From Isurus oxyrinchus (taxonomy: Eukaryota): a DNA stretch of 64,000 bases. Within the stretch, counting starts at the first letter, position 1; each line of letters starts with the position of its first letter. Position numbers and translations under genes: made by a program. Where the stretch lies: positions 5,208,001 through 5,272,000 of the forward strand of contig JANJGN010000034.1 in assembly GCA_026770705.1 (NCBI GenBank), given 5' to 3'. Under the pieces are notes generated by a model. That model did no database searches, was not told the origin of the DNA, and was given only the letters and a program-made list of their open reading frames with translations. Positions 7,085 to 55,647 of this stretch are shown one piece after another.

Positions 7085-7105
7085 AACTTAAGCAGCGTAA
7101 TGATG
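7085..7105 (+). CDS. 21-nt heptad microexon, ELKQRND
   Basis: catgctttgcattgtaatccacag|AACTTAAGCAGCGTAATGATG|gtaagg. Confidence 0.8.
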
Positions 7106-8735
7106 GTAAGGACATGCCATAAACCCTTACACATTTGTTTGACTCTATCTGGACTGTGTGAAAGTGACAGTGACAAGAAAAAACTATTTGAGAATTTCAA
7201 GCATATTTAAGGTACGGCTAAAGTCATTAAATATCCTGCAATGGGCCAGGGTCATAGATGTCTTTGTTCTCGGCGTGTATCACAAGACTACTTCTATCGG
7301 GTCAATGTCGTTATATACCCCGCACTATTTTTTCCATCTGCAGTCTTTAATGAGCCATTTGCACATTTACCTGTTTTGAATTTCAACTTAAATAATGCAG
7401 CAGTGTGCCCAGTTTCACAGCTTGGGGGTAAAGCTTTTACAGGGGTCTCAGGGAATATCTTCGGGAATACTACAACAGGTGAGCGACTAGTAAAGTGGAG
7501 AGACTGAATCACCGTTAACTGTTTCTCCCCAAGAGTACCCCCCCCCCCCTTTCCCCCCACCACCACCCCTCCACCCCCACACCATGTGAGTGGGAGATTT
7601 AAGAGCGGGAAACATAACTGAGATAAGATTGGTTCAGGTGAATCTCGTTCTGCTGTTAAGGTGTTGAGCAAATAATCCACAAGATACCATAGATTGACAA
7701 AATTACAAAAGAAACCTGAAGGATAATTACGATATAATTGGTTCCTGTGATTCTGCATGTAATTCTGATAACTAGAGTTCGAACAGCATACAAAGTACTG
7801 CGGGCAACTCTGCACGGCATACTTTAAGATGATGCACCACCAGAAAAGGTGAAAGCAAGAATTTACAACATTATACCCAAAAACCGACAGTGTAACATTC
7901 CATTCAAAAACAAATTGCACGGGCAACTTGTTTCTTTGTGTTTCTCACGAAAAGGGAAGATTGTGCAGTTTATTTTAAAGAATATACTTTTTTTCATTTA
8001 CACATGCGTTCATAGTGTAGGCAAGGAGGAAATAATTCCCATCGTGGGATATAGCAGCTTTCATGAATATGATAAATTCATAAAATAATTAAATGAGTAA
8101 TTTGGAGATAATATATTGTTTGCCCAGATCATGGACCACAATAACACTGGCAGAAGTTCAGCTGATGCCGAAAGAGGTACTTCAGAGGAAAGAGGCAAGA
8201 AGCCTGAAAATACTTTAGAAGGCTGTGCTCACAGGCTTAGCTGTATTCCAGAAACTGCTCTGTATTTCCTTATGAGATGGTTTTGTGTTATACCTGAAAA
8301 CAGACCTGCCAAGACCTTCGGCACGTGTTAACATGTTATGGGCTTTATGAATGAAATGCCTTGCTGGCTTCTATGAGTCATACCACTAGAACGAAACACA
8401 ACCTAAGCATGAACACTAAACCACGTGCATCCTCAGAAAAATAGGTTTTTAACGGAATGGAGCGCAGAGCACACTTTTTTTATTGACATGTTTCCTCTCT
8501 CTGGTATTTTATTCAATTCGGACGCTGACACGTGGCCTATTCGGCTCCCCTGCCTTGATATGGCTGGTCTTTTCCCACCATGTGCCTGGACGCGCTTTTA
8601 TTTGGGAGATGAGATGTGCCAAACGGTTTTGCTAAATCTAAATCCTGGCTTATGTCTGTTGTTATCGTGCTGTGAGTTACCATTACAGAAATCAATTTTA
8701 CGAAATCGATCATCGTTTTACTTTATGCCCTGTAG

Positions 8736-8756
8736 ATATTAAGTCCCTCGAAGCAG
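8736..8756 (+). CDS. 21-nt heptad microexon, DIKSLEA
   Basis: cgttttactttatgccctgtag|ATATTAAGTCCCTCGAAGCAG|gtaagc. Confidence 0.85.
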
Positions 8757-14222: not shown

Positions 14223-15729
14223 TGCCTCATGTCCAGCTTTCACTGCACATTCGGGTAGATCAGAGGGTAGATTTAACAATGTGTTACAAAGTATAAACGT
14301 TGATAAATAATTCAAATGGAGATGGGTCCTTATTTCGTACAGGGTATACCCCAACATTGAGATTGGTTCACAAGTTAAAGACTTGTCCCTTGAAGGCCCA
14401 ATGACTCACGGAATGTCTGGCTTTAGTTTGCTAGGTCTTACATAAGAATAGAACAGGCCCATCTGTCAGGAATGCCAGCCTGCTTTACGAACTTGCTGAA
14501 GAAAATGATTTCACTCACTTGACCAAAACGTGTAGAGTAAATGAGATGTGATGTTTGACATGAGACCTGGAAATATTCAGAAAAACAAAGTTAAAAATCT
14601 GGTTTGCTTACAATGCCACGTGTTATTTGTTGGACTAATACATATTTGGAAGTGGTAAATTCATGGCCTTTCCTTCCCAGCAAAAATGAACAAGTGCAAA
14701 AAAGCTAACTTATTAACAAACATGTGCTATTCTTCTCTGCCAGAGGGTAATTTTTTGGAATGCAAAGAAAGTTAATAGTGAGGCTAAAATCACGAATATT
14801 CTACATGGATGCTGAGAGTGGCCTGTAGATGGTCCCCTCTTCCTATTGCACAGAAACAACAGTAATCTATTAGCGAACTTTTATCATTTATATTAAATAG
14901 AATTGTAAGATTTATTCCTCAGTGCCAAATGCATTTAAATCCCTGTTTCTTTCTTAAAACTCAAATCACAAAGGAGTATGCCATTTTGGCACATGTCAGA
15001 ATGGACAACAACAGTTTAGGGGAGATGAAATGAGTTTTTATTAGATATATAAGTATGGATGTGATCAATTAGCTTTAGGAACTCGATAAACTGCAAGGTT
15101 CTCCTCAAAGCAAATTGCGTAAAGGATAGTTATAATGCAATGCAGCTTAGTTTTTCCAAAAGATGCAAAAGATAGGTCGGGATTATTTTTCTGTTTTCCG
15201 AAAACGTGATTTTTTCAGATATCTAAAGGTCAGAATAAACATGGAGGAAAATATACATTCCAGTATGCCATTTACATGAAATATAATTTTTAAAAAATAA
15301 TGGGAATGTTGCAAGTTAAAGGCTTAAAAGGATGTTGCCTGGAAAATAAGTGTATAGTTTTCAGCCGTCCCGGTCCAAATCATCTTTAAATTTGTAACAC
15401 GCCAATATTTTTCCACAGTTTAATAATAAATAATACTTTCACGTTGCCGTGCAGAAGTAAAAGTGCCTTAGAATCACTTAGGAAATCATTGCTGCTTCAT
15501 GATTGACTTCCTACGCATGTAGATATCATCCCCCTTGTTTTTTTTATGAAACACAACTTAGTGCACCATTAGGCTGGGCAGTCTGTTTTGCATGAAGGTT
15601 TTCACATGAGATGGCATAGCTTATCGACGAATTGAAACATTTTTTTCTTGCTTACTGTCATGTCTTCTGCGTCAATTGCTCGCAGTCAAAGCAATCTGAC
15701 AAAAACAATGTTTTCAATTATGCTTTCAG

Positions 15730-15750
15730 AAAAACTCAAGCTCCAAAAAG
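15730..15750 (+). CDS. 21-nt heptad microexon, EKLKLQK
   Basis: gttttcaattatgctttcag|AAAAACTCAAGCTCCAAAAAG|gtacat. The donor is weaker than the others, but length, phase and terminal G match. Confidence 0.6.
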
Positions 15751-18892: not shown

Positions 18893-18913
18893 AACTTGAC
18901 AAGTGCCAAGACG
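18893..18913 (+). CDS. 21-nt heptad microexon, ELDKCQD
   Basis: cattaattgtgctttctatcatttctgacag|AACTTGACAAGTGCCAAGACG|gtaagc. Confidence 0.85.
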
Positions 18914-20576: not shown

Positions 20577-20597
20577 TATCAGAGATGTTTGAGAATG
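20577..20597 (+). CDS. 21-nt heptad microexon, VSEMFEN
   Basis: attaatg, a long T run, then gttttccttgcag|TATCAGAGATGTTTGAGAATG|gtaaga. Confidence 0.85.
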
Positions 20598-23500
20598 GTA
20601 AGACAGGAACAAAATGTATCGTGATACAAAATCTCTAGTCCGCAACATGGTTAAAATCGAATGGGAAAAACTATTTGAGGGGAATAACGTCAATGACAAA
20701 CCTCCAAAATCATTAACTAGCAGTGCAGCGGCTTGATTTTTAATAGCATGAGGAGTGAGAGACACGAATTGTTATTATTTATCCAAGAAATGTTCCCAGT
20801 ACCAAAAAGACAACCCGTTCATTTCAATGCACTGATATCTCACGAGAAGTGCACAGTGACAGGAACTGTTTACATGCGGCACAGAACCCAGGTGAAGTTT
20901 GAGAGAAAAGTGAAGAATGAAGATAGACCATCGTCAAGACTCTTCTGAAAGCTTCACAAAATTTCACAAGACAAATGACAAATAGGTGCAGCTCCAGCAA
21001 GGGAATATATGCTGCAGTAATTGCAAATTCATCGCCAGGATGGCCACAACCTCATATGTTTCCTGACAATCGGTGCGACAAATTTCCTAAATTTTACTCC
21101 ATAGTGTACAGTGTGCGTTCATGTAACGTATGAATTCGTTCTCCTCAATGTGGTACCATTACCATCTTCCAACGATGCAAAACAGGGCAATGGCCTATCA
21201 GCACCATCCCCTGGGGTTGTCCCACGAAAGTACCCAGAAGGTGCGCTGAAGGACGCCTCGGGAATCCCCGATAACTACCCGGGAAAGTAAAACTTGCATC
21301 GGAAAAATATCCTCCCAAACCTCTTAAGCTGTGATAGGAAGTGGGAGACGTTGGAGTATTTCAACTTTGTAATAAGAATAGCTATCCAGCAACAGTTTTA
21401 AGGGTCAAAACCATTTTTCCTCCTCGAAAGGGCACTTCATGAAATAGTCCAGCGACTCAGAAATCAGCCGCATAACTAACCATATAAGCTAAACCTTCAA
21501 CCATGTAAGTATGCGTCCGACATGGAGAATTTGTCCCCATGAGAGCTCCTCAAAACCCCAGTGTACTCCACCAATCTTCAGACCACCAAAGCACTGCCCT
21601 CTCTTAACACAAGGTCCCCCACACCATGACAACCCGAGTGTGGCCCCCACCCCAATATACCCAAGACACCCAGAAACGATGTCTCACTCCCAACCACGAC
21701 AACCACAAACGTCTGGCGACACAAACTCTGAGAAATGGGATCGAGAGGATGTGCCCTAATTGAAGAAATTAATCTTGTGAGACATTTTGTTAAAACTGGC
21801 ACAGAGATCTTCTCGACTTCGGGAACAAATATTGATATACTTGGAGTCGAAATATGGAACATCAACATAATATTTTCACCTAGGATACAAATGGGGAAGT
21901 CACACAGAATATATTCATCCAGCACGGGTTCACAGTGTGCACTGCATTGTCTAAGGTTGTAGTTGAATTTGGAATAATTTAAGAAATTAAGGGCTAATAT
22001 GAATAATTGCCAAAATAATGAATGTTGCAAACTAGTTTGTGCACGGCATAAGCTATGGTTTGTGATGCCTGGGACTGCTGACCTCTTCCTGAGCAGTATG
22101 CCAAGAGAACAGGCAATATTTTGAGTCACAGAGGAGAAATATTAATTAATACTCATAAAACAACTTTGAATAGGAAAAACACAAACAGAGGGAAAAAAAA
22201 TAACAGGTCCAATGAGCAAGGAGATGCATAACATCAGGAAATTCGCGGAAGGGCTTTATCTGATCATAAAAGTTTTATCAATCTCGGAATCCTTGCATGG
22301 AAAGCGCTCGCATAGAGTGAGAACATAGAACTAAAATGCTGATTGATTCACTGATGATCATAAACCACAGAAATTAACTCTCCTGACATAGCCTGGATTA
22401 ATTTGGCTCCCAAACCATAGCAGACTTGCTGATTCTGACTCAATGCCATAAATGACCATGTTAAATAAACGTTTTAATTCATAAATTGGTAGGGGGTGTT
22501 GGAGTGGTCGGGAGGGGCGGGTGGTGGTCCTGTGGCTCAAGGTCACAAACATCATCGAAGAAAGAATATGCTACTGAGCACAAAATTTGCTCTTTACATG
22601 GATCGCAACCCCCTGTGAATCATTACATCTTCAGAAAATGCATCATACCTTTCCTAGCCTCTTGGTCTTTCGCGCTTTAATAGATTCCTTTTCATCTTCA
22701 GGGTCATCAGATTCATACTGTTATTCTCTATCTGACCTCCTCTCCCAAAAGAGTCCCATTTTCAAGCTGCCATTAAATTTCTCCTGTCGCATTAATATTT
22801 ATTTGCCACTATGATCCTTCTGTTGCTCATTGTAAATGTTTGGAATGGAGATTGCATTGGTTTAATACGTTAAAGGTTCATTTATATTTCAATTAGCTTT
22901 CCGTCCATATCTTAATTATCAATCAGGAAACGGGTCAGCAAACCAAAACTAAACTTGGAAACTGCTTGTTTCGGCAAATACACAACAGCTTCTGCTGGCG
23001 TAATGTAGGGTATGAGTAATTATGTATCAAGTTGCACAGATTGTATAATCTATGATTCGTCTATCTGCCACTTTATTCCCTTCGAAAAATAGTACCTGAA
23101 ACATTGCATTCCCCTGGTAATATATGGCTTGTAATTGAGTACCAAATGGTTTCAAACTGGTTATCTGCTTGAAATGATATATCTAAATATTCGTTACAAC
23201 TAAGGTATAAATTTGTTCCTAGTTTCACAAGTGTGTGAGGATTTCATTTTCTCAGAAAATAAATTAGGCTGGATTAATTGAGTTTTCTACTCATTCTGAA
23301 TGGACTTTAAATTAGTTTTGACGATAAGAACGAGGGGCAGATGTTTGTAGTTCAATGTGCAAGATGGGCAAATCTGGAGTTCATTAGTAATTTAAAATAA
23401 GACTGATTGACGAATACATTACATGGTTGGTGGTCGTGGACAGGGAATAGTCGTCATTCAATCAAACACAGTGCTGACAATACGTTATTGAGAAAAACTT

Positions 23501-25363: not shown

Positions 25364-25384
25364 CACAAAAGCATTGCATAGCCG
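25364..25384 (+). CDS. 21-nt heptad microexon, AQKHCIA
   Basis: cattaattgcattttctctaatcctgacag|CACAAAAGCATTGCATAGCCG|gtaagc. Confidence 0.85.
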
Positions 25385-26765: not shown

Positions 26766-26769
26766 TGTA

Positions 26770-31400: not shown

Positions 31401-31409
31401 TGAAATCAC

Positions 31410-34606: not shown

Positions 34607-34627
34607 TGATTGTGAAGTGCCAAGAAG
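34607..34627 (+). CDS. 21-nt heptad microexon, VIVKCQE
   Basis: gtttctttcctttctggcag|TGATTGTGAAGTGCCAAGAAG|gtaagc. Confidence 0.85.
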
Positions 34628-38000: not shown

Positions 38001-38460
38001 GCATTTTGGTAGGGAGAACAAGAACAGGCCATATTAAATAAAGTGTGAAATTATGGAGTTGATTCAGGAGCATAAAGATATGTGTGTATGTGTGCATATG
38101 TCATTGGAGCTGGCAGAGCAGATGGAGAGGGTAGCTAATAAAACAAACTTTAACCTGGACTTTATTAATAGGGGGCATAGATTATAAGAATAAGGATGTT
38201 GTGCTATATTAATATAAAACACTCGTTAGATCTCAGCTGCGATACTGCGTAAAGTTCTGAGCACCATTTTATCCAAATGATGTGAGCACATTGGAGAAAG
38301 AGCAGGATAGATTTTGGAGAATGTTTGAGAGATGAGAAATTTTTACAATGAGGTTACATTGGAGAGTTTAGGGCGGCCCTCATTGAAGAGAATTGATAGA
38401 GATGCTGAAAATTATGCGGGGCTGGACGGAAAGTATAAGGAGAAGCTGATCCCACTCCGA
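35100..38460 (+). mobile_element. Long degenerate CR1 LINE (ORF1 esterase, ORF2 endonuclease and RT remnants)
   Basis: gacgggttgcacctcaatagagctgg (DGLHLNR), aaaggtggagggatagcg (KGGGIA), gtgtagtctacaggccg (VVYRP), tgtgaggtgatgcattttggtagg (CEVMHFGR). Many stops. Confidence 0.85.
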
Positions 38461-38850
38461 AAAAATGTTTTGTTGGAAATGCAATCAGCCAGGATATTGC
38501 ACTGGATTTCCATCACAATCCAGGATGGTGCCTTGTAGATATCGTGTGTGGTCTAAACAGCTAGTAATTGAGTTGTTCTCCGCAGAATCACCAGACTTTG
38601 ATCCGCTGTTCTAGCCACACTACATATATAGCGGGTCCAGTTCACTTTGTGGTCAATGGCAACACCGCGTAGTTTGATCGCCGGCGCTTCAGCAATGGGA
38701 ATACGATTCTAACTCATGTGGATATGCATGCATTCTACTATTGTACATTTCCAATCTCTGAAACTTGTGTGGCGCTGAAGTTCCTTTCTAATGATCAGAC
38801 CAAGCCTGAAACCTGCCTGTTCTTGCTGCATATGGGCATGAAGTGTCCGA
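38460..38850 (-). mobile_element. CR1/L2-clade LINE fragment
   Basis: Same family as 31410-31930 (ttccatcacaatcc...gtgccttgtagat...ggtccagttcactttgtggtcaatggc). Confidence 0.6.
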
Positions 38851-39422
38851 ATTGCACTCCATTATGTCATTCCATTACTTATTTAGAATGTTACTTAAGT
38901 TATTTATCTTTCATCTCTTTTTTCACCTCTATCCTTCTATTTCCCTCAGTGTTTTTATGTTAACACCTCCGTGAAGTATGCTTGCCACTTCAAAGTCGCT
39001 AAATAAATCTAATTCATTCATGGCATTCTATTATTCCGTTACCTCCGCTGATACCACTATAAACAAAGCACTTTGTAAAAAAATATGAAGCCCATCAGTC
39101 TCATGATACCCCAGGTATATTTATAGCATAATGTATAAAATAATTAACGAGGCATCGCAGACCACAGCCTTCTTTCCCTTCTAATATTCATACATCCAAA
39201 GAGATAAATGTGGAACATTAATCCCAATGTGGTTGCTCAACTGAACATGCATTACTTTGTGGTTGAAAGCTATGTATAGGCATGATCCGCTTGATATGAG
39301 ATGCCATATACCCTAGCCAATGCAGGGATCTGCGTTTGTAATTGTTGCCATTTGTTACTGTTACATAGACAACTGAGAACAAATTTGTTAGAATTAACTG
39401 TTCCTTTTATTTTACCCTACAG

Positions 39423-39443
39423 AACTTAAGAAGTCAACTAAAG
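39423..39443 (+). CDS. 21-nt heptad microexon, ELKKSTK
   Basis: aattaactgttccttttattttaccctacag|AACTTAAGAAGTCAACTAAAG|gtatga. Confidence 0.85.
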
Positions 39444-40079
39444 GTATGATCAGGAACACATTGTTGCATTTTGATGTGTAAAATCTATATTATGTCATGG
39501 TTATGTTGCGCCCAGTAGGTCAAAAAGAGACAAGATGCATAGCATATTTACTAAAATGAAACTAGTGATGAAACCCATCAGCATCGTTGAGGGAGTGTAC
39601 AGCCTGTGATTTTACTGTTCTAATTGGAGATTTGAGGGCAGATTTCACGATAATGATGTACTTGTCCATTTATCAGTTTAAATTCTTACTTGAGCATGAT
39701 CATTGGTAATTGGTTAAGAAAGAAAAAAAAATGTAAAGGAATAGTAGGCTATGACTTTTTAAATTTAATTCAGCACTGTGAATCATTTTGTTATCCAGTA
39801 CCCAGGTCATTACAAGGATTGTGCATTCAAGCCTGTTCCCAATTCAAAAAAGGAGAGCTGCTCAATGTTGCACAATAAAGGCTGGCAGGAGAGATTCGTA
39901 TCAAAAAACTACACCATGTAGGGCTTTCATGAGTGACAGAAATCCCAGATAATTTTCTCACAGCAACTGAATATTCGTCATTAATTATTAGAATGCATTA
40001 ACGTTTGAAAGCTGATGTTACTGTGTAGACAGAGAGAATGCGTCCATTTGCATTTACAAATTCCTTCGCTGTTCGGAAT

Positions 40080-40500
40080 GAATGCAAGTTCAATGCCATT
40101 AAAGTATATCGAAAACATCCATGACACATCAATCCAAATGATTAATACACTATTATCCTTCTTAAACTTCACTCCCTGCAAACCCATAGCTTTGGCAACT
40201 GTGTGTACCAGATTTATGATGCACTCCATCAATGCAGTAAGGTTGCTTCCACAACCTCTTCGAAACCTACACCCTCTACAATATAGAAGCACTGGAGCAG
40301 CGGGTAGTTGGGAAAACCAATTCCTGCATGTACCTTTTGTGTACTCACATCATCTTGTTCGGTATCCTGTGAGCAGCATTGCCATATACCAAAAAACATA
40401 AATTACAAGCTCCAAAAAGGCGGCTCTGCATAAAATTTCCATCAGCAGCTAGGAATGGATAACATGTGCTACTGGAGCCAGTGGCCCTGGCTTCATGTGA
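40080..40500 (+). mobile_element. CR1/L2-clade LINE 3' fragment
   Basis: catgacacatcaatccaaatg...gatgcactccatcaatgcagtaaggttgcttccacaacctcttcgaaacctac is the reverse-orientation counterpart of the minus-strand LINE pieces elsewhere in the window. Confidence 0.55.
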
Positions 40501-43188
40501 AAGGATAGTTTTTAAAAAATGAATATGTTAGGAGATGAGCAAAATTGGATGATAATAATATAAGTTAGTTGTCGAAAAAAACATAAAATAAAGCCATAAC
40601 GTTTAAAAGAAAAGTTGTGTTGCTTTGCCCAGAAGAGCTGCGATGGCGTAGAATTTTCACTGCAGAGAGTAGTTAACGGGCCACTGTAAAAACATCCCAG
40701 AGGAGGAAAGGTAAACACTCGAGCGTGCAGGGAGGAAACTGCTACGGTGGTAGGTTTAGAAGATGGAACAGGGGAGAAACTCGAGTGAAGCATAAAAAAT
40801 GACATCGAGTGTAGAGGTTGACCGGCCTGTTTCTGACCGAATATGTTGTGTTCTCTGTGAAGGAAATCTGCACGGAGAATATAATCAATCATTATATGAA
40901 CTGTAAAGTAGTTACAAGCTGGAGGTGTAGACGATTGTGTGCCTCAGGATTTAGAGTTTGAGGTCTCAATACAATGTGAATCCTCTCAGAAGCCAGCAAA
41001 TGCGTCAAAATGAATACATGATTCTACTTGACAGGAGATTTACAGAGTTCAAGCAGTGCATCAGGTGTACACATATAAAAGCATCAAAAGTCTTGAGAAA
41101 AATAAAGCAGCCTTCCTAACGTATTTCTGATATTAGAAATTCCAGGCCCACATTCAGGTTGTTAAGCGTGAAAGTCACTCATGCATGGATGAAATAAACA
41201 TCGTTATATTCCAAGCATCGACTTGCCAAACCTGTCTAAAATCCACTTGGTGATGAGCAGTGAATGCTGTTCGTAAGGAAGTTAGGCACATCCGGTAGTT
41301 AACACAAACAATTGAATCCATCCTCCTCCAGTTCTGCCATTCTGCACGCTCTTGATGTTTACCGCTCCATTATTGACTTCATGGCCTTCAGACCGAAAGG
41401 TTCCGTTACTGGTTTCTTCTCAAATGCACCCCCCCCCCCCACCCCGCCCCCGGCCTTTTCAAAACTCTTCGGTTCACTTTATGCAGCACTTTAAATCTTT
41501 TCTCTTTTCATCAAGTTATTTAGTGTTTTTCATTGCTTTTCGATGCGAAAGAGCTGTTGAATTCCAATTCATTTACAATTGTAAGTTGTGTCATAACACA
41601 TAATCATTGTTAAGCATGACACTAGTTAGACTACAGCTGGAGTACTGCGTGCAGCACTGTTCGCAGCACTATAGGAAGGATATGAGTACACTGGAAATGC
41701 TTCAGGGGAGATTCACCTGGATGTTGCCTGCATTGTAGCATTTAAACTATGAATAGAGACTGGGACGTCTGTGTTTCTTTATTGCTCAGAGCAAGAAGTC
41801 CAATGAGGGATCTGATAAAGGTATATAAACTGTAAGAGACGTAGATATGGTAGACCACTAGCGGAGGTGTCAATAATCATGGGGCATGGATTTAAGTTGA
41901 TCAGCAGGGGATCTGAGGATTTCCTTTTACACCTGGAGATGGTTTCACCTCTTTAAAAACTGCCTGAGGGAGTGAGGCACAGGCGGTGGGAAGGGGCGGG
42001 TGTGGGAGTGCGCTGGAATGTAATCCATCACAGTGCAGACCTACGCTTTGTAGATTGTGGACATGATCTGATCAGTGAGGAGGAGAGTTGTTCTCCATTG
42101 ATTGTACAGAGCCTGAACTGGCCTTTATGTAGTGTGTGCATATGGCACGTCCAGTTCAGTTTCTGCTCAATGATAACGGCAAAGATTTCAATAGGCGGTA
42201 TTCAGGCATGATGATTCCTCTGAATGTCAAGAGTGGATGGCGGGATTCTCTCTTTTGGGAGATTGTCATTTTATGGCCCCTGGTAGTCACGAAATTTGAC
42301 TGCCATTTTTCAGACCAAGCCTGGAACAGATCTTGTTTCATATTGCCACCCAGAGCTTCCTTATAATCGAGGATCAATTAGTTTTTGTTCTCTTTTCGCA
42401 CAGCAACCTCATTATTCCGAATGTTAATTTTTTTTGTGCCATATCGCATGAAGCGGTATACGAATAACACTGGCAATAATCAAGGATTTTTTTAATATTC
42501 TGGAGCTGTACGGATTTCGGGGTATAACACAGAAGAGGAAATTCATCTAGTATTTACAATAAAATGAGAGAATGGGGCTGTGGTTTAAAACAGTCAAAAT
42601 AATATTATGGAATATATTTACAGAGTTGAGACTGGAAAGTAAAATGTTTGTAACGATGGGGAAGATCAAAAAGGCAAAAAATATTGGAACTCAGGAAGGC
42701 ACCAATGTGATTGTGACTGAATGTCTCTAATGACACATGGAGCAATCTACATTCTTTAATTGAGGGCAATTTGCTGAAAATATAACTATCAGTGAATGTC
42801 TCTGCCCTTGCAAATGTGAGATTTTATGTGTTTCAATGTATTTGCTTTTAGCATTTTAATTGCTGAAGAAATGCTTTTAGGGCCTAAATTTGCCGAGGAG
42901 CTGAGTTCGGAAGTTCCATTCTCCTCTTCCTGCTTCCATTGATTTTTCCATCTCTGATTTGTTTCGGGCTCTAATCGAATTACTTGTCAGCCAGAGAGAC
43001 TTTGGCCTTCAATCCAAATCGTCATATTTGTTTGCTTTGTTATTTGCCACAAACCTTTATTTGTTAAGGCACCTGTGATGTGGATGCCAGGTTTGGCCAT
43101 GTTATTGGAGGCATACGCATTCAATTCGTTGTCATATTTGCATTAATCTATAATTCTCAACTGTGTCATAGTAGATCAATTATCTTAA

Positions 43189-44378
43189 TGTCACTTTAAT
43201 GTCCGCTTTGTCCTCACTTATAACCTCACCAGCCTCTGCATTCAAAGGATCATCCTCCAGCATTTCCGCCAATTCTAGCATGATGCCACCACCAAACACA
43301 TCTTTCCTTAACACCCCCCCCCCCCCCTCCACCTCCCACCGGCGGCATTCCGTAGGGATCGTTGCCTCTGTGACACCTTGGTCCACTCCTCCATCACCGC
43401 CTACTCCACAACCCCCACCTATGGCACATCTCCATGCCCATACAAAAGATGCAACACCTGCCCTTTCACTTCCTTTCGCCTCACAGTCCAACACCCCAAA
43501 CATTCCTTTCAAGTGAAGCAGCATTTTACCTGCATCTCCTCCAACTTAGTCTACTGCATTCGTTGCTCACAATGCGATCTCATCTACATTGGAGAGACCA
43601 AACGTAAACTGGGCGACCGCTTTGCAGAACATCTGCTATTTGTCCGCAAGAATGACTCAAATCTCCCTGTTGCTTGTCATTTTAACACACCACCCTCCTC
43701 TCTTGCCCACATGTCTGTCCTTGGTTTGCTGCATTGTTCCAGTGAAGCCCAAGGCAAACTGCAGGAACAGCACATCGTCTTCTGACTAAGCACTTTACAT
43801 CCTTCTGGACTGAATATTGAATTCACCAACTTTAGATCTTTAACTACTCCTCCACCCCACCCCCTTACTGTTTCTTCCCCCTTCCTTTTGTTTTTTTTAT
43901 CATTAATTTATTTCGATTTTTCTTTTCCCACCTATTTCCATTATTTTTAAATATTTTATGTCCTCCTAGCCTTTCCACCCCACCCCGACTAGAGCTGTAA
44001 CTTGAGTACCCAACCAACCATTCTTAATTTGCACATTCGTTTAGTTGATAACACCATCTTCAACACCTCTGTGTACTTTTGTTCTTTTGTCTGTCGCATC
44101 TTTTGATTACCTGTTCCTATCACTGCTAGCTTGTCCCTACAACCACAGCCACCCCCCCGACACTCTTCTCACCCCCCACCCAACCCACCCTCCCCCCACT
44201 TGAAAATAGTTTATATTTCATCCCTCTCCTTAGATTATTTCAGTTCTGTTGACGGGTCCTGGGAACTGGAAGTGTCAAACCTTTTCTTCTCTGCCGATAC
44301 TGCCAGACATGCTGGGTTTTTCAGAGCAATTGTGTTTTTGTTTCGGATTTCCAGCATCCATAGTTTTTTTTGTTTTTA
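43189..44378 (+). mobile_element. 5'-truncated Penelope-like retroelement (GIY-YIG endonuclease end) with an 8-bp flanking duplication
   Basis: ORF 43378-43785 contains FTCISSNLVYCIRCSQCDLIYIGETKRKLGDRFAEHL. It is flanked by tatcttaa at 43181-43188 and 44379-44386. Confidence 0.92.
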
Positions 44379-44665
44379 TATCTTAAGCTTGATCTCAATC
44401 TCCAACACTTTATATGCTAAGTAGACTGCTTTGATAATGGGTAGTTTAATGGCGATGTTTGGGATGAACAGCATTTATGAAAACTGTGGTTGTGGATCCA
44501 TGAGGGAATGCAACGCTCCGCTGGCAAAAGCCCTAATTTCGGCAATACCTATCACCTGGAAGTTCTGATGCAGCAGTGACATGGGAACGCCAGCGAGTGC
44601 AAACTGAGCGCCAAGCCACTGTGAAACCTGAACAAAAACTGTATCAGTGACACTTCAACGTCACG

Positions 44666-45097
44666 GGGCCAATATTTCCAAATTACCCTGCCAAGAGCCC
44701 ACTGCTTCATCATGCTGTATCATTCCTGGGACCCTCTCAGAATTTCGCCATGAACTCCGTGGGATATTCCCCCAGATTAAGAATACATTACAGAAGAATT
44801 GCACGTACATTGTCTGTGAGGTTTCCACAATGATTTTTGTCAATTATCCCGCTGCTGGAACCCTTTGGAACTCCGACGTCAAATGGTTTAATGTGGGCCA
44901 ATATTTCCAAATTACCCACTCAAGAGACCACTGTTCCTTCATACAGTATCATCACTGCGAGTCCTGTAGCCAGGAACTGCATTTGATGTCCCTTCAGATT
45001 AAGATTTCAGAATGGAAAGATTTCACGGAAATTGTCCGTGAGGTTGCCACTTCCTTTGTTGAATTATCCCGCAGCTGGAACTCTCTTAAACTCCGAT
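44666..45097 (+). repeat. ~230-bp local tandem duplication within the first cassette
   Basis: gggccaatatttccaaattaccc...aactccga occurs twice (~44666-44880 and ~44896-45097). Other cassettes carry at most one copy. Confidence 0.8.
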
Positions 45098-47329
45098 ATA
45101 TATGGAAGATTTCGGATTATGCCAATTCTCATAGCACAATACCAATGCAAATAAATTCCCTGGACCAAACCCGCTGCTAATGTTTGGATAATGAAACTAA
45201 TTAATCGTGTTCTGGCACACCAGCAGGCGCCCTGGTCAGCGATGCAAATATACAGAAAATTAATAACGCACTTCTGTTTCGTTTATGCAGAACATTATAA
45301 CTCTTGTCTTTCATCAAAATATTCAAAGCTTTTCGTTGCTTTTCCTTGCCTGAATCAATGCGAAGGAGCTGTTGAATTTAATTTGCATTACATTTGCAGG
45401 GTCTGTCAGAACGGTTAATCATTGCTAAGCATGAGGCTAGTTATACCACGACTTGAACACTTTGTGCAACTCTGGCCACCACGCTGTAGGAAGGATATGA
45501 CTGCACTGGACAGTTTCAGGGGGGGTTTCACCTGGAGGTTCTCAGATTTGGAGCGTTTCAGATATGAATACTTACTGGCTACGCTTCGTTTTTTTTAAAT
45601 CCTTAGAGCAAGACAGCTCATGAGGTATCTGATTAATGCATATAAAACTGTGAGGGAAATAGATAGCGAGAGAAAGGATGAAACATTTCCCATTAGCGGA
45701 GGTCTCAATAATCATGGGGATGGATTTAAAAGCCGGGATCAGAGCGTTCAGTGGGGATTTGAGGATTTCATTTTTCACCCACAGGGAGAGTGCAATCTGT
45801 AAATCACTGCTTGATTGAGAGGGAGTGGTTTATTTCATTACACTGCTGACATGTGCCTTGTAGATGCTGGACATTATCTGATTAAATAGGAAGAGAGTTG
45901 CTCTCCGCAGATTTTCCATAGCTTGATCTGCCCTTTAGGCCCTGTGTGTATGTGACAGATCCAGTTCAGTTTCTGATGAAAGGTGACAGCAAATGATTTA
46001 CTTTTCGAGAGTTCAGCCATTGCGATTCAACTCGCTTTCATAAGGCGATGGTTAGATTCTGTCTTTTTTGATATTGTCATTTCCTTCCCCTTGTAAGGCA
46101 CAAAATTTGATTGTCGTTTTTCAGCACAAGCCTGAAACGGCTCTTGCTGCATTAAGGGACCTAGTGTTTCCTTCTCATCGAATTTCAAATAATTTTATGT
46201 TTCTCGTTTTAGAGCAGCAACCCCATTATTCCGAAAGTTCATTTTTTTTGTTGTGACTCATTGTATGAAGCGCTATAGGAATAACACTGGCTGTATTCAA
46301 GGAAAAGTTGTAATTGGGAGCTTTACGGAATTCGGGGTGTTTTACAGAAGATAAAAACCGTATAGCATTTACCATGACATGAGGAGATGGAGGTGGGATG
46401 TCAAAGAGTGATAATAACTATAATAAAATGTAGTTACAGAGTTGGCACTGGAAAATAAAATGTTTCTGTAGTTGTAGAATATCAAAAATGCAACAATATT
46501 GGAACTCAGGAGACACCAATGTATTTAGTGCTGAACGGCTCTCATGAACCACCGAGCAATCTACAGTCTTTAATTGAAGGCAATTTGCTGAAAATAAAAC
46601 TATCAGTGAATGTCTCCGCCCGTTTAAATGTGAGATTTCCTGTGCTTCAAGATATTAGCGTTTTGTGCTTAAAACAATGATGTTCTGGTTTCAGGTCCTA
46701 AATTTTCTTAGGAGCTTAGTTCAGAAGTTCCATTCTACTCTCCGCTTCCTTTGATGTTTCTATCTCCGCTTTGTTATGGGCCCTAATTGAGTCACTTGTC
46801 ACCCAGACAGTCTTTGGTCTTCTATCATATTCGTCACATTTTTTGGCTTTTTGATTTCAGGTATACCTTTATTTGTTAACATACCTGTGATGCGAATTGC
46901 CATGTTTCGCTACAGTAATGGCGCCACATGCATTTAATTCGTTGTCATTTCTGCATTATTCTATAATTGTCACCAGTGTCACTATTTATTAATTAATTGA
47001 GGTCTCAAGTCAAGTAGACTCCTTTGATAATGGGTTCCCATTTCCGGATACACGAGATTTTACATAATTCGCATGTTTGATTCATTCTCTGTGCATGTAT
47101 GCATTCAAATTCTTCAAAGAGAATTAAGAATCTGTTTGGCACTATATTAACGGTATATTTCCAGTTCATGCATAGATGCTTTCCTTTTGCAAGGTCTGCT
47201 TGTATTGGGATGCAGCAAGTCCACACCAATACAGGATTCTGAGTTTGATTTTGCTGTCAACTGTTCTGTTAATTGTTTGAAAATGAAATAAATTGTGAAT
47301 AAAATGAGACATTTCCATTCCGCCTACAG

Positions 47330-47350
47330 ACATGGAAAAGGAGATTGAAG
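47330..47350 (+). CDS. 21-nt heptad microexon, DMEKEIE
   Basis: catttccattccgcctacag|ACATGGAAAAGGAGATTGAAG|gtaaga. Confidence 0.85.
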
Positions 47351-50252
47351 GTAAGAGCAGGGCGAAATGAATTTTGATGTATGGTTCTTCCCTGGATCTC
47401 TGATACCACCGAGCCGGAATGCAATTAGAACTGGCTACAATTATTTCCAACAATTCCAATGACATGAACCAGTCGTGCGAAGGCTAGATATTTCCATGGA
47501 TCAGGAGCACAAGATTGGAAATAATATTTTTTTCCACACAAAATGCTCTCAATATCAATAACATTCCTGTTGACTTGCATGCAATTATTTTTCATGTACT
47601 ATGTAGATGGCAGTAGTAGGTTAATGGCGATTTCTCGGATGAATAGCCGTGAAGAAAACGTGGGCGTGTGTCCGTAAGTGAAGCCAACGCTCCACTGGCA
47701 ACAGGTCCAATTTCTGCAATACCAATCACCTCCAAATGCTGAAGCAGCAGTGGCATGGGAACGCCGGTGAGTGCAAACGCAGCTCCAAGCTACGAAGCAA
47801 CATGAAAAGAAACGGTTTCAGCCATCCTTCACTGTCACCGGGCCAATATTTCCAACTTACCCTCCCAAGAACCCAACATTCTTTCGTACTGTATCATTCC
47901 TGGGAGTCCTACCAGAATGTAACCAGGAACTGCGAGGCATATCCCCCAAGATTAAGAATTCATAACAGTAGGATTGCACAGAAATTGTTGTTGAGGTTTC
48001 CAGTTATTTTGTTCAATTATCCCGCAGCTGAAACCCTCTAAAACTCCGACGTAATGTGGGAGTTTTCGGATGATTCCAAATCTTGTAGCAGAAAAGCTAC
48101 GCAAATAAATTGCCAGGGACCTAGAACGTTTCTAATGCTTGGATAATCAAACTAATTATTCATAACCCTGCACACAATCGGGTGCCCAGATCAGCGATGG
48201 CAATATTAAGAAAATGATTAATACTCTTAACTTTTATTCATGTAGAACTTTAAATCTTTCCTCTTTCTTCAAGATATTTACATTTTTTCATCGTTTTGCC
48301 TTGCCTGAATAGAAGCGAAGGAGCTGTTCGATTTCATTTGCAATGGTAAGGCCTGTCCTCACATATAATCATTGTTAAGCATGGCACTAGTTAGAACGCA
48401 GCAGGAGCACAATGTGCAGCTCTGGTCACAGCACTGTAGGGAGGATCTGACTGCACTGGAGTTGTTCAGGAGAGATTCACCTGCACGTTACCTGATTTAA
48501 AGCGTTTCAACTGTGAATAGCGACTGGTTAGGCTGAGTATTTTTTTATTCCTCAGAGCAATAAGGCAAACTTGGGTTCAGAAAAATGTATAACAATCTTT
48601 GAGGGAAACAGATGGGGTAAATAGGAAGGAACGTTTCCGCTTAGCAGAGTTGACAATAATCATTAGGCATGGAATGAAGGGACATGAACAGGGGGTTTAG
48701 AGAGGATTTGCGGGTTCCTTTTTCAGCCAGAGGGTCGGTTGAATCTGCAGGACACTGCCTGAGTGATGGGGGAGGGATGTGCACTCCATCGCAGTGCAGA
48801 CATGTGCCTTGTAGATGGTGGACATGATCTGAGCAGTCAGGAAGAGAGTTGTTCTCTGCAGAACTACCCTTCATGCACTGTTTGTATAGGACAGATCCGG
48901 TTCAGTTTCTGGTCAATGATAACGACAAATATTTCAACAGAGGGGAATTGATCCATGATAATCACTCACAATGTCAAGAAGGGATGATTTGACTCTCTCT
49001 TTTTGGAGATTGTCATTTTCTGGCCACTGTGAGGCAAGAAATTGGTTTGCCATTTTTCAGCACAAGCCTGAAACAGCTCTCGCTGCCTTTCACCGCGCAG
49101 TACCTCCTTCTAATGGAGATAAATTAGTTTTTTTTTCACTTTTAGCACAGCGACATCATTGTTCCGCATATTCACATCTTTTTGTGAACAACTCATGAAG
49201 CGATATTTTAATATTACTGGCAGTATTCAATGATTTTTTTTTTAATTGGGAGCATTACGGAATTCGGGGCATTTTATAGAAGAGGAAACATTTATAGCAC
49301 TTACCACGACACGAGGTGATGATGGTGGGGTGTCAAAGAATGATAAATTATTTTATGGAATGTACTTACAGTGTTGACACTGGAAAATAAAATACCGGTG
49401 GGGAATAGTAAAAAAGTCAAAAGTACTGCAACACAGGAATGCACCAACTTGGTTGGTACTGAATGGTATTTAACTGAGGGCAGTTGGCTGAAAAAAAAAC
49501 TTTCAGTGAATGTCTCCAATCTTACTAATGTGAGGTTCTCTATATTTCAAAGTATTAGTGATTAGCATTTTATATACTGAAGAAATGATTTCAGGGCCGA
49601 AATTTGGTGAGGACCTAAGTTCGGAAGTTCCATTCTCATCTCTCTGCTTACTTTTTTTTTTCTTCTCCGCTTTGTTACCTGCTCTAATCGAATCACATGT
49701 AGTGCAGAGAGACTTTGGCTTTCTATGCCAACAGTCATATTTTTTGCTTTGAGATTGGAAGCATATACTTTTCTGTTAAGACACCGGTGACGTGACTTGC
49801 TACGTTTTGCAACGTTAATGGCTCCATATGCTTTCAATTTGTTGTCATTTTTCATTTATTCTGCTATTATGATATTGTCACACCAAGTCAATTATCTTCA
49901 GCATGAATTCAATCCCCATCACATTATACGCTATGTAGACTGCCTTGACCATAATTTTCCCTTTTAAGGCTACAGGACATTTGAGATATTTCGCATATTT
50001 TTGTCATTATCTGCTTATGTATGTATTCAAATGCTTCAAACATAAATATGAATCTATTCGGCCGTATGTTTAAGGTATATTGTCAGCTTATGCATGCATG
50101 CTGTCCTTTTGCATGGCATGATTGCGATGGGATGCCACAATACCACACCAATATTGGATTCTGAGATTGATTACGCAGTCAATTGTTCTTTTAATTATAC
50201 AAAAGTAAAATAAACTCGACCGAAAAATAAAATCTTTCTATTCTGCCGACAG

Positions 50253-50273
50253 TACTGGGGCTAGCCAAGGAAG
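50253..50273 (+). CDS. 21-nt heptad microexon, VLGLAKE
   Basis: atctttctattctgccgacag|TACTGGGGCTAGCCAAGGAAG|gtaaga. Confidence 0.8.
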
Positions 50274-53121
50274 GTAAGACCTGGGCCTAATTAATTTTGA
50301 TCTATAGTGTCTTACTTGTATTATCGTTAAACACGAGCCTGAATGCAAATTGAGAAGTCTGAAACTATTTACAACCAGCCCAGAATAATGGACTAATCAT
50401 GGGAAGTATTCATATTTTCTTGGAACAAGAGTGTCGGAATGGAAATAATATTTCCTACACACAAAACGCTCTCCATACCAACAACATTCCTATGACATCT
50501 GTCAACCAACATTTCATGCAATATTTCGAAGGCACTGATAAGTTTATATCAATATCTTTGATGCACTACTTAAAAGGAAAACGTGGGTGCTGCTCCGTAC
50601 GGGAAGCAAACTCCTTGCTGGCAACATCTCTTTTCTGCAAGACCTATCACCTCGAAGTGCTCATGCGAACGCCGGTGAGTGCAAACTCAGTTGCAACCAC
50701 TGAGCGACCTGAACATAAACGGGATCAGCGTCCCATCACTGTCACGAGGCCAATATTTCTTAATTACCCTGCAAAGAGCCTACCGTTTCTTCATTCAGTA
50801 TTGTTCCTGGGATCCCGAGCAGAAGGTAGCAAGGGACTGCTTGGGCTATCCACCCAACTGTGAATTCATTACGGAAGCATTGCAGGGAAATTGTTTGTCA
50901 GCGTTCCACTTGTTTTTGTCAATTATACCGTGGCTTGAACCCATCGAATCTCTGACGTAATGTGGGAGAATTTGAATGTTTCCAAATCTCTAGGAGAATA
51001 GTGACACAAATAAATTCCCAATGACATAAAACAGCTACAAAGACTTGGATAATTAACCAAATTGCTCGTAACCCGGCTCACCAGCGGTTGCCCAGATTAG
51101 CAAAGGCTATGTACAGATAATTAATAATGCACCTCTGGTTCCTTCATGTAGCATTTTAAATCTTTCCTCCTTCATCATTTTATTTACAGTTTTTCAGCGG
51201 TTTTCATTGACTGAATTGACGCAAAGGAACTGTTGAATTTCCTTTGCATTAGAATTGTACCGTGGGTCATAACACATCATCATTGTTAAGCATGACGCTA
51301 GATAGACCACAAATCGATCACTAGTTCCGCTCTGTTCACTGCAATATGGGATTTTTGTGACTACACCAGCGATGGTGCACCGGAGATTCACCTGAATATT
51401 ACCTGATTTGGAGATTTTCAACTATGTGTGCCTTTTTTTTTATTCCTCAAGCAAGAATGCTAATGAGAGTTCTGATGAATGTGTATTAAACTATGCGGGA
51501 CATAGATAGGTGAGATAGGAAGAAATATTCCCCATTTTCGGAGTTGTCAAAAATCATAGAGAATAGATTTAAGGGGACTGGGGTTTCCGAGATGTTTTGA
51601 GGATTTCCTTTACCACCCATATGAAAGACACGCCTGATGGAGGATGGAGGAGGGGAGTGGGGAGGGTGAATTCCAAAACTGTGCAGACTATGCCTTGTGT
51701 ATGGTGGAAATGATTTGATAAGTCAGATGGAGATGTGTTCTCCGCAGATTTTCCAGACTATGAGCAGCCCTTAAGGCACTGTGATTATATGATCAATGCA
51801 GTTCAGTTTACTCTCCTTGATGACACCAAAGATTTTCATAAACGGGTATGCAGACATGGTGATTCCTCTGAATGTCAACTGAGGATGGCTGCAATCTTTC
51901 TTTTTGGAAATTGTCGTTTTCTGGCCCCTTTGAGGCAAGAAATGCGTTTGCCGTTTTTCAGTTCAATCCTGAAACAGTTCTAGCTGTATTTCGCCATGAA
52001 TAGCTTCCTTCTAATCTAGGATAAAATTGTTCTTTTTTTAGCACAGCATCTTCATCATGTCGAATGTTCATATTATTTTGTGACACTTCTCATGAAGCAA
52101 TATAGCAATAACCCTGGCAGTAATCAAGGAAACTTATTAATTGGGAGTTATATGGAATATGGTTTCTTTTACAGAAGAGGAAACAGGGGTAGCATTGTCC
52201 TTGACACGAGGAAATATGGATGGGGTGTCAATGAGTGATAAATTTGGAATGTATTTACAGAGTTGACACAGGAAAATGGAATGTTTCTACCGGTGGAAAT
52301 ATAAAAAAGGGAAGAATATTGAACCTCAGGAAGGCACTGATGTGATTTGGACTGAATGACTCTCAACTACCACCGTGCAATCTACAGTTTTCAATTGAGG
52401 GAAATTTGCTGAAAATAAAACTATCAGTGAATATCTCCAACCTTCCGAAGATGATATCTTCTGTATTTCAAAGCATTCTGGTTTAGCGTTTTAAATTTAG
52501 CAATTCTAATCTCTCTTGTTGCGATGGATATTTTTTCCATCCTGCTTTATTAACGTCACTAATCGAATCATGTGCAGGCCAGATATCCTTTGGCTTTCTA
52601 TCCCATCAGTCATTTATTTTGCTTTGAGATTGGAAGCATATCTTTATTTGTTAACTCACCTGCGACATGACTTGCCATGTTTTGCTACGTTAAAGGAGCC
52701 ATATGCATTTAGTTCGTTGACATGTTTTCGTTATTCTATAATTCGCACTAGTGTCACTATAGGTCAATTATCTTCAGCATGAAGTCAATCTTCATCTCCT
52801 TATATGCTTCGTAGGATGCTCTGATCATGTTCTTCCCGTTTTAGGATACAGGTAATTTTAGGGACTTCGCATATTTGATTCATTCTCTGCTAATGTATGC
52901 ATTCGCATGCTTCAAAGAGAATTATGAATATATTTGGCGTTTTTCTACTGCTACATTTCTAGCTTATGCATGCATGCTTTAACTGCGCATGACCTGCTTG
53001 CAATGGGATGCCACAATTCCACAGCAGCACTGGATTGTCAGTTTGGTTTTGCAGTTCTGCTAATTATTCAAAAGTAAAATAATTTTTTTGCAAACATGAA
53101 TGTTTTCCATTCCACCTACAG

Positions 53122-53142
53122 CACTTGGAAAGGTCACTGACG
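53122..53142 (+). CDS. 21-nt heptad microexon, ALGKVTD
   Basis: tgttttccattccacctacag|CACTTGGAAAGGTCACTGACG|gtaaga. Confidence 0.82.
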
Positions 53143-55626
53143 GTAAGAAAATGGCGAAATGAATTTGATGTAAAACGTCTTAAATGCATCATCGATACAC
53201 ACGACCCCGAATGATATTTGAGAAGGCTCAAATTATTTACAACAAACCAAGAATCATGAACTAATCTTGAGAAGCCTAGATATTTCCTTGGTCCAAGTGT
53301 GTGGGACTTGAAATAAAATTTATTCCACGCAAAATGCTTTCAATACCTCGGACATTCCTAATGTCATCTATGCACCTACATTTCATGCAATGTTTAGATG
53401 ACACTCGTCGGTTAATGGCAATGCCTGGGATGAATAGCATTGAAAACAAACGTAGGTGTTGCTCCATAAGGGAAGCCAACGCTACGCTGGCAAAATGTCC
53501 AAATTCCGCAAAGGCTATCACCTTGAAGTGCTAATGCAGCAGCAGGAGGGAAATGCCACCAAGTGCAAACTAAGCTCCCAGCCATTGAGCAAACTGAACA
53601 TTAGATCTTTCCTCTTTCATCATGACATTTACAGTTTTGCATTGCTTTTCCTGGTCTGAATCGATGCCAAGGAGCTGTTCAATATCATTCACATTACAAT
53701 TGTAAGGTGTGCCATAACATATAATCATTGTTAAGCATAACGTTCGTCTGACCACAGCTGGAGAACGGTGTGCATCTCTGGTCGCCGCACTAAATGCAGG
53801 ATGTGACTGCAATGGAAATGGTTGAAGGGAAATTCACCTGGATGTTACCTGATTTGGAGCATTCGAACTCTAAGAGGAGTCACTCTAGGCAGCGTTTTTA
53901 ATTCCTCAAAGCTAAGATGCTAGTCAGGGATCTGATGAATTCATATAAAACTATGAAGGACAGAGATATGCTAGATAGGAAGAAATATTTCCCATTAGCG
54001 GAGATTACAATAATAATGAGGCTTGGATTTAAGTTTAGGCAACAGGGAGTTCAGAGGGGAATTGATTATTCCCTTTTTTTGCCCAGAAGATGGTGGGAGT
54101 CTGCAACATACTGCATGATTGAGGGGGTGTGGTCCATTCCATCACAGTGCAAACCTGTGCCCTGTAGACGGTGGACATGATTAGATTAGTTAGGCAGAGA
54201 GTTGCACTCCGCAGATTGTCCAGAGCTTGGCCAGCTGTGAGTATTTGAAAGATGTGGTTCACTTTGTGCTCATTAATAACACCAAAGATTTTAATAGACA
54301 TGTATTCAGCCATGGTATTCCTTTGTAAGTCAATTGCGATTCTCTCTTTTTGGAGATTGTTATTTTCTGGCTTTTGTGAGGCACGAAATGTGTTTGCCAC
54401 TTTACAGCCTAAGCCTAAAGCAGCACTTGCTGCAGATAGCCACGCTGTCCATCCTTCTAAACCAGGACCAAATCGTTTTTTTGTCTCTTTTAGTGGAGCG
54501 ACCTCATTATTCTGAATATTCATATTATTTTGTGAGAAATCACATGAAACGATATAGCAATATCAATGGAAGTGTTCAAGGAAAATATTTAATTGGTATC
54601 CGTATGGATTTCGTGTATATTACAGAAGAGGAAACATGGTAAAATTAACCATGACAGAAAGAGATGGGGCTGGTGTGTCAAAGAGCGGTAATTAATATTA
54701 TGGAACGTATTTAGAGTTGACAGAGGAACTAAAATGTATCTGCTTGTGGCGAATATCAAAAGCGCAAAAATATTTGAACTTAACTAGGCACCAATCTGAT
54801 TGTGACTCTATTGCTCTCTTGAACCACTGAGCAAGCTGCATAAGTTAATTGAGGGCAATTAACTGAAAATACAAGTATCACTGAAATTCTCTGCCCTTCC
54901 AAATGTGAGTTTTTCTGCACTTCATGGTATTTACGTTTAGCGTTTTAAGTGCTGAAAAAAAGTTTTCAAAGCCTAAATATGCCGAGGAGCTTAGTTCCGA
55001 GGTTGTGCTCTCATCTCTGTGCTTCCTTTGATTAAACCATCTCCGAATTTTACAACTTCTAATCAAATCATTTGTCACCCAATTTTTGCCCTTCGACGCC
55101 ATTTGTCTTTTGTATTTGATTTGTTAATTGCAGCATACCCTTACTTGTTAATGCAACTCTGACGTGACTTGTTATATTTTGCTATGCTGATGGTGCCATA
55201 TGCATTTTATTCATTGCCACATTTGCATGATTCTATAATTCTCACCATGGTCACTCTAGGTCAATGATCTTAAGCTTGAACTCAATCCTCATCACTTTGT
55301 ACGTTAATTGGACTGCCTTGGTAATTGTTTTCCCATTTACGTGCTCCGGTAAATTTGAGATACTTAGCATATTTGAATCATTCTCCGCTAACGTATGTAT
55401 TTGAATGTTTCAAAGAGAATTATGAGGATATTTTGGTGTTATATTACTCGTACATTGCTAGCACATTCATGCATGCTGTACTTTCTATGAACTGCTTGTA
55501 TTCGAATGTTACAATACCAGGTCGATACTACACTCTGAGCTTGGTTTTACAGTCAGTTGTTCTGTTAACTGTTGAAAAGTAAATTCAATTTGACGCAAAT
55601 TTGAGAGCTTTCTATTCTGCCTACAG

Positions 55627-55647
55627 AACTGGCAAAGACCAATGAAG
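55627..55647 (+). CDS. 21-nt heptad microexon, ELAKTNE
   Basis: gctttctattctgcctacag|AACTGGCAAAGACCAATGAAG|gtaaga. Confidence 0.85.

Follow-up and report, generated by a model that had tools for sequence, protein, structure and literature searches.

How are thirteen exons of only 21 nucleotides (nt) each to be understood, and does their uniformity mean that splicing sets the length of the protein they encode? The question is raised by a 64,000-nt stretch of the Isurus oxyrinchus genome (assembly GCA_026770705.1, 4.98 Gb; contig JANJGN010000034.1, here C34, positions 5,208,001-5,272,000). We call this whole stretch the window and number it from its first letter, negative positions lying upstream of its start. 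Its plus strand carries 13 intact AG-21 nt-GT units from position 7085 to 55647. The original prediction held that every intact exon is 21 nt long, has phase 1-1 and ends in G, that any subset would therefore preserve reading frame, heptad register and junction residue, and that such exons could work as a combinatorial dial if alternatively spliced. The answer that we consider likely is that the units are microexons mid-way in a giant gene for a coiled coil ending in a B30.2 domain, and that the length of the coil changes through duplication and decay of exons, exon skipping being tolerated rather than tuned.

The loose AG-21 nt-GT pattern matches dozens of sites on both strands. Therefore, we worked with scored candidates and used the minus strand as a control. 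Scoring relied on rough splice matrices made for this analysis from general base frequencies. All 13 units have the predicted length, phase and final G, although the matrices favour G at position -1 and the count therefore reflects in part how candidates were scored; among 17 minus-strand decoys, 16 have the same final G. None of the units contains a stop codon in the phase-1 frame, whereas 4 and 9 of them do in the two alternative frames. Ten of the 13 encoded modules have L, I, V, M or F at position 2, and nine have a hydrophobic residue or C/A at position 5. When the 13 modules were joined, the hydrophobic period was 3.50, a value equalled in none of 2000 shuffles. The units thus look like genuine coding mini-exons, each of which adds one heptad to a coiled-coil rod. 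Cysteine occupies a core position of the coil in three of the 13 modules, and position 5 of the 36-nt exons introduced below in 22%.

We then asked how far the modularity extends. Among the 13 exons it holds completely, since none of the 78 ordered pairs creates a stop at the junction and any subset retains frame, register and junction residue. The uniform length, however, holds only between 7085 and 55647. Intact 36-nt exons lie at window positions 557, -1038 and -9128, all three of them ahead of 7085, and the first encodes 12 residues and would shift the register if skipped alone. Across the host gene described below, the same shift would follow from skipping any one of 119 of 150 exons (27 or 36 nt), and 22 of the 150 have A, T or C as their final base. 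A T-ending 21-nt unit with a weak donor at window -116,539 even forms TAA with the next exon. G is also the usual base at position -1 of a donor site (about 80%), and at the gene's own rate of 123/142 a run of 13 G-ending exons out of 13 has a probability of 0.15. The 13 exons arose as tandem copies of a single symmetric exon, and G at -1 is the ordinary donor base. Modularity is to be expected from such copying and needs no special selection.

Microexons of this kind continue far beyond the window. An exon-length spectrum covering 844 kb, both strands and lengths of 15 to 60 nt displayed plus-strand peaks at 21 nt (33 candidates vs 7 on the minus strand), 27 nt (50 vs 5) and 36 nt (45 vs 5). 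Other lengths gave no peak of comparable size. Exons of the three sizes recur along the whole 844 kb. Of the scored candidates, 1 of 33, 0 of 50 and 2 of 45 respectively contain a stop when read in phase 1, against 14-34 in the other frames. A census of 742 continuous kb, restricted to these sizes and with the third-best minus-strand score as the cut-off, yielded 150 intact exons (71 of 27 nt, 48 of 36 nt and 31 of 21 nt) with 1,431 codons and a single junction stop. Nine samples (44 kb) from the remaining 780 kb showed plus-strand microexons in seven cases and minus-strand microexons in none. The hydrophobic period is 3.53-3.55 in the 27/36-nt regions as compared to 3.50 in the 21-nt blocks, which suggests stutters in the coil. 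Between window positions 320,000 and 394,000 the exons follow a repeating 36-27-27-27 unit of 39 residues.

The array probably ends in a recognizable domain. A penultimate 21-nt exon is followed by an open B30.2 exon of 172 amino acids at C34:6,395,819 (PF00622, E 1.8e-13). Upstream of the window, a terminal exon of 172 codons at C34:4,816,509 encodes the B30.2/SPRY domain (PF00622, E 2.9e-14) of another gene, gene A, and we took a 111-nt phase 1-1 exon at C34:4,859,457 as the upstream bound of the host gene, gene B. The window most likely lies within gene B, which would span C34 ~4.86-6.40 Mb on the plus strand from the 111-nt exon to the B30.2 exon, the linkage being drawn from position and strand. 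Gene B is probably one gene of ~1.5 Mb ending in the B30.2 exon, and by extrapolating 0.2 exon per kb we infer a single transcription unit of ~300 exons and ~3,000 residues. Its sequence predicts a long coiled-coil stalk rich in K, L, E and D, built nearly entirely from phase 1-1 exons of 21, 27 and 36 nt. The translation of the 111-nt exon begins AVMLAIEVARR and resembles GYLPAEEKVRR of a skate protein by eye; a homolog search with its frame retained 0 of 33 candidates, and the genome contained no paralog match.

Could the span instead hold several smaller genes between the two B30.2 exons, or a membrane protein of butyrophilin or BG type whose immunoglobulin (Ig) and membrane exons were overlooked? 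About 780 kb of the span were covered by samples only, the exon design with its terminal B30.2 domain is butyrophilin-like, and BTN3A1 is the top solved-structure match of the domain (E 6.8e-20). The array also contains proline-rich exons that resemble hinges. We nevertheless consider this explanation decidedly unlikely. Profile searches over 924 kb (24,663 frames), which sampled the ~780 kb of gene B discontinuously and took in the two intergenic stretches that follow the upstream B30.2 exons, gave a best E of 1.1 for Ig (profile of 16 Ig domains of B30.2 proteins) and 0.25 for RING (54 RING regions); leave-one-out controls, run for the Ig profile only, recovered 6 of 6 at 1e-22 or better. 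No convincing phase 1-1 candidate for a transmembrane exon appeared in the stretches read, in which the 5′ end of gene B was not fixed. Two of the proline-rich microexons, at window 329,727 (36 nt) and at position 4563 of a sampled gap segment (27 nt), may code for hinges in the rod.

The relatives of the B30.2 domain argue in the same direction. Among 1.84 billion representatives, the nearest single-domain relatives came from skate (XP_055510696.1), catshark (XP_038668997.1 and XP_038672306.1), elephant shark (XP_042191566.1), electric ray (XP_069775384.1), basking shark (XP_078422387.1) and epaulette shark (XP_060706632.1), under automatic TRIM, A33 and butyrophilin-like names. Together with five B30.2 domains of C34 these seven form a 12-row clade with 100/100 support in a tree of 85 rows (75 best-scoring domains plus TRIM-like matches; midpoint root, bootstrap not wholly settled), and all named members are cartilaginous fish. 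The clade lies apart from rows with Ig motifs and from the group with Ig- and RING-bearing proteins, contrary to a butyrophilin-type grouping. Pfam detected SPRY/PRY only in 7 of 7 relatives, with Ig in 0 of 7 and RING/B-box in 0 of 7, and none of the seven has a membrane helix; the best 19-residue hydropathy was at most 1.53 in 13 related proteins. The skate protein has ~120 residues ahead of B30.2, its coil pieces EEMLRKKNI and ELDSLREDL match gene A exons, and its predicted fold consists of two long helices and a B30.2 sandwich (predicted local distance difference test 74.9; top folds TRIM7, pyrin and BTN3A). A search for longer proteins related to the B30.2 domain gave TRIM-like proteins only, at 29-35% identity (14 of 467), and the skate protein as query returned its own cluster only (1 of 758).

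Short phase-1 heptad exons, a terminal B30.2 exon, a coiled coil followed by B30.2 and coding sequence mostly in symmetric microexons are thus all present at the locus, and the relatives combine a common clade, the absence of Ig and RING and a helical, charged N-terminal part. We found no description of such a family in the literature, seen mainly as open literature at abstract level; supplements of shark genome and proteome papers may list its genes. Judged by these domains, gene B would belong to a so far undescribed family, confined to cartilaginous fish among its named members.

The gene has paralogs on the contig. Searching with the B30.2 exon of gene A (150 of 283 candidates scored) gave four further exons, at 2.71 (-), 3.47 (-), 6.40 (+) and 7.50 Mb (+), so that C34 carries five. 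All four are open for 172 codons, as is that of gene A, and three of the four have coil-type exons of 21 or 27 nt within 10 kb upstream. A third gene, gene C, is 84-88% identical to gene B at its 3′ end, introns included, and 76-83% identical in a 5′ block. There, at C34:6,455,835/6,455,840, the match to window -357,627 is joined directly to the match to -116,807, so that ~240 kb of gene B, which contain the 111-nt exon and about 45 microexons, have no counterpart in gene C. In the five B/C exon pairs that are intact in both genes, identity is 28/30, 31/35 and 28/35 at codon positions 1, 2 and 3 against a background of 80% (p 0.016); three more pairs, non-canonical in one or both genes, stand outside this count. 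A Met-initiated hydrophobic stretch of 16 codons at C34:4,834,624 (window -373,376) and 6,440,497 is identical at 44 of 48 positions between genes B and C (background ~80%). It is signal-peptide-like, has no good phase-1 donor and lies just downstream of a conserved donor-like site. About 1 Mb upstream, at C34:4,130,627 and 4,302,501, there are pattern matches to the 21-nt and 27-nt exon types, which makes it probable that gene A contains a 21-nt block as well.

Duplication and decay of exons are directly visible in the window. Its right half consists of tandem duplication units, the source of its exons, with one exon per unit. Of 19 copies defined by their flanks, 11 keep the full splice consensus (p 0.0003-0.003 vs neutral decay). 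The whole 21-nt block reaches from window -123,216 to 99,817 (~220 kb), and 14 of its 44 catalogued 21-nt copies are broken. Stops occur in none of 30 intact but in three of 14 decayed copies (p 0.027), and the decayed copies are clustered in runs (p 0.026). The copies at window 99,817 and C34:6,461,090 have a GC instead of a GT donor; they were tallied as decayed and may be GC-AG exons. The change in stalk length is clearest at the level of the genome, as exon birth, as exon death in runs and as the 240-kb difference between paralogs.

The same decay would be expected if a once-coding exon had been tandemly amplified and were now drifting, gene B being largely a decaying or silent pseudogene. 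This explanation accounts for the broken third of the catalogue, for the divergence of the window's paralogs at the intron rate and for the lack of an identified start exon. Several results weigh against the reading we favour. Between the intact paralogs of the window, identity at the three codon positions is 0.68, 0.61 and 0.61, not above that of the introns (flanks ~0.64-0.74). Retention of AG..GT, taken as a test on its own, is marginal (13 of 19 flank-defined copies, p 0.03-0.09 vs neutral decay); the selection tests are small, and their seed copies had been picked as intact. Repeated searches of the 5′ region of gene B fixed no start or signal exon. Two other points bear on the structure of the gene. 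With 742 of ~1,540 kb continuous and the paralog search scored in part, the span could, although this is unlikely, contain several genes in succession, and gene B is described here from genomic sequence. A signal-like N-terminus was seen in two of seven related clusters (skate and epaulette shark). The pseudogene explanation nonetheless appears highly improbable to us. It is at odds with the near absence of phase-1 stops in all three size classes, with B30.2 exons that are open in all five paralogs, with the codon-position bias of the B/C pairs and with broken copies that lie in runs instead of at random.

Is the modularity of the array, then, put to regulated use? As a combinatorial dial, it would let tissues pick subsets of heptads for stalk length or partner specificity, and the G-ending, register-neutral exons would have been selected for this purpose. 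That all 78 pairs are compatible suits such a dial, as do the concentration of 21-nt exons in a single block and the frequency of G-ending exons (28 of 30, compared with 55 of 66 at 27 nt and 40 of 46 at 36 nt). So do the annotated isoforms of the relatives, which are distinguished by single blocks that leave the frame intact: 9 residues in elephant shark, electric ray and catshark, 6 in electric ray and 7 in elephant shark. The first residue of every block is D or A, as would follow from a codon split after G. All these isoforms are annotation models, and the 7-residue difference comes from a separate annotation source. Four of the five blocks break the heptad register, which argues against register preservation as a design rule. 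In addition, the final G is explained by the donor consensus, three 36-nt exons interrupt the 21-nt block and thirteen heptads amount to 91 of at least 1,431 residues. In favour of a dial, macaque BTN3A transcripts lacking one heptad are reported in the accessible part of PMC6790196; against it, the chicken BG splice variants described in the portion seen of PMC5938342 are intron read-throughs with truncation. Taken together, we regard a regulated dial as unlikely.

We therefore return to a giant coil-B30.2 gene whose exons are gained and lost in the genome. This reading builds on what is observed at the locus: the signals and phase of the exons, their heptad pattern and tandem duplication, the terminal domain, and the five paralogs with the clade they belong to. 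The long stalk would oligomerise and hold the B30.2 binding heads at a distance, and cysteines at core positions could cross-link its chains. Since symmetric phase-1 exons are frame-neutral, whether they are added, removed or skipped, stalk length would shift mainly by genomic exon duplication and decay. Occasional skipping would be harmless, tolerated rather than read as a combinatorial code. The chances that the protein is secreted seem about evenly balanced. In butyrophilins, the Ig and membrane exons are phase 1, and a butyrophilin-like ancestor that lost them would arrive at this layout in one step. The most far-reaching version, which we think very unlikely as a whole, is a single ~1.5-Mb unit of ~300 microexons in an undescribed family, encoding a secreted rod of ~3,000 residues (~0.4 micrometre) with B30.2 tips, whose reach or pairing is varied by regulated skipping in the 21-nt block.

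The features of the window are listed in Table 1. An acceptor-like conserved repeat (D14; 38586, 42101, 45911, 48862, 51748 and 54215) was rejected as an exon, as it has no donor downstream and its projected copies contain stops. None of the long open reading frames of the window is attributable to the microexon gene, and several look retroelement-like by eye. The same appearance is shared by repeat insertions at 43,200-44,380 and 56,590-58,590, which have regional copies of 75-82% identity on both strands. A search with one 21-nt sequence pattern gave no matches, and genome searches for PRY (150 of 313 scored) and V-set (150 of 3,319 scored) gave nothing close to the window. Most of the 150 scored PRY matches form a very large cluster at C21:82.9-118.2 Mb, probably a TRIM or related expansion that has no relation to this locus. 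A word search for sequencing runs with a 6.5-kb stretch, whose 27-nt exons are shorter than the 31-letter words, listed no RNA run with a match, only five runs of the same species label with almost no shared words. Four of these five, as assembled contigs compared with the last 10 kb of gene B, covered repeats and left the B30.2-exon bins at zero depth; such contigs show presence only and are uninformative on expression.

Table 1. Microexons, decayed copies and duplication units in the window (positions count from its first letter).
Feature	Position	Strand	Basis or remark
36-nt phase 1-1 coil exon, intact	557..592	+	score 22.8 vs best minus-strand 14.9
21-nt heptad microexon 1	7085..7105	+	splice pattern, phase-1 frame
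21-nt heptad microexon 2	8736..8756	+	splice pattern, phase-1 frame
Decayed 21-nt copy	14684..14704	+	acceptor and donor gone, weak match
21-nt heptad microexon 3	15730..15750	+	splice pattern; weak donor (GTACAT)
21-nt heptad microexon 4	18893..18913	+	splice pattern, phase-1 frame
21-nt heptad microexon 5	20577..20597	+	splice pattern, phase-1 frame
Decayed 21-nt copy	23303..23323	+	in-frame stop, weak match, not recovered by splice matrix
21-nt heptad microexon 6	25364..25384	+	splice pattern, phase-1 frame
Tandem duplication units (exon + intron)	31597..64000	+	~2.5-5 kb each, 63-74% identical
21-nt heptad microexon 7, duplication family I	33194..33214	+	splice pattern, duplicated flanks
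21-nt heptad microexon 8, duplication family II	34607..34627	+	splice pattern, duplicated flanks
21-nt heptad microexon 9, duplication family III	39423..39443	+	splice pattern, duplicated flanks; donor GTATGA
21-nt heptad microexon 10, duplication family I	47330..47350	+	splice pattern, duplicated flanks
21-nt heptad microexon 11, duplication family I	50253..50273	+	splice pattern, duplicated flanks
21-nt heptad microexon 12, duplication family I	53122..53142	+	splice pattern, duplicated flanks
21-nt heptad microexon 13, duplication family I	55627..55647	+	splice pattern, duplicated flanks
Decayed 21-nt copy, family I	60498..60518	+	donor reads TT
Decayed 21-nt copy, family II	61903..61923	+	acceptor reads AA, final base A

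Should gene B prove to be a single unit, it would rank with the vertebrate genes that have the most exons (titin has 363), and nearly all of its exons would be too short for standard annotation. It would be one of five clustered genes from a B30.2 family of cartilaginous fish that is mislabelled in databases as TRIM or butyrophilin-like. The gene would offer a direct test of how the spliceosome copes with microexons that follow one another by the hundred, and of whether splicing or the birth and death of exons sets the length of a coiled coil.

Among known systems, the chicken BG genes come closest. As far as the excerpts of PMC5938342 and PMC4046983 describe them, their tails consist of 27-37 exons of 21 nt, one heptad each with codons split 1+2; exon number varies by gene and haplotype, and splice variants, with intron read-through among them, alter the length of the coiled-coil tail. 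The BG structure given there has an IgV domain, a membrane segment and a cytoplasmic tail, and no B30.2. In gene B, by contrast, we found no Ig or membrane exon in the stretches read, B30.2 is terminal, most of the microexons have 27 or 36 nt, and no fewer than 150 of them extend over more than 740 kb. BTN3A shares short heptad exons ahead of a single terminal B30.2 exon, and its transcripts can lack a heptad exon in frame. According to the part of PMC6790196 available to us, however, its heptad exons are few and follow IgV, IgC and membrane exons, whereas the B30.2 domain of gene B falls in a separate long-branch clade.

The coil-B30.2 relatives of cartilaginous fish have the same B30.2 clade, similar coil modules, no RING or Ig and isoforms that differ by module-sized blocks. 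Their database models comprise 175-460 residues, of which the shorter ones may be truncated, and the stalk of gene B is at least several times longer. Class IV TRIM proteins likewise carry a coiled coil ahead of B30.2 (PMC12730704, in the section seen); they differ in that no RING or B-box was found here in 924 kb and that identity to TRIM B30.2 domains is ~30-35%. Vespryns, B30.2 proteins of snake venom, have no long stalk in the same section, ohanin having 107 residues (PMC12730704). The schistosome micro-exon genes (MEGs) resemble gene B in coding mostly through symmetric microexons, which can drop out without a change of frame, and the text seen of PMC4015677 reports secreted products with a signal peptide. 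It also describes them as genes of a parasite that encode small proteins and whose transcripts document the skipping; they are unrelated to gene B, whose modules are coil segments joined to B30.2. The design of one heptad per 21-nt exon is thus already known from the chicken BG genes: the modularity is ordinary, and it is the host gene that is unusual.

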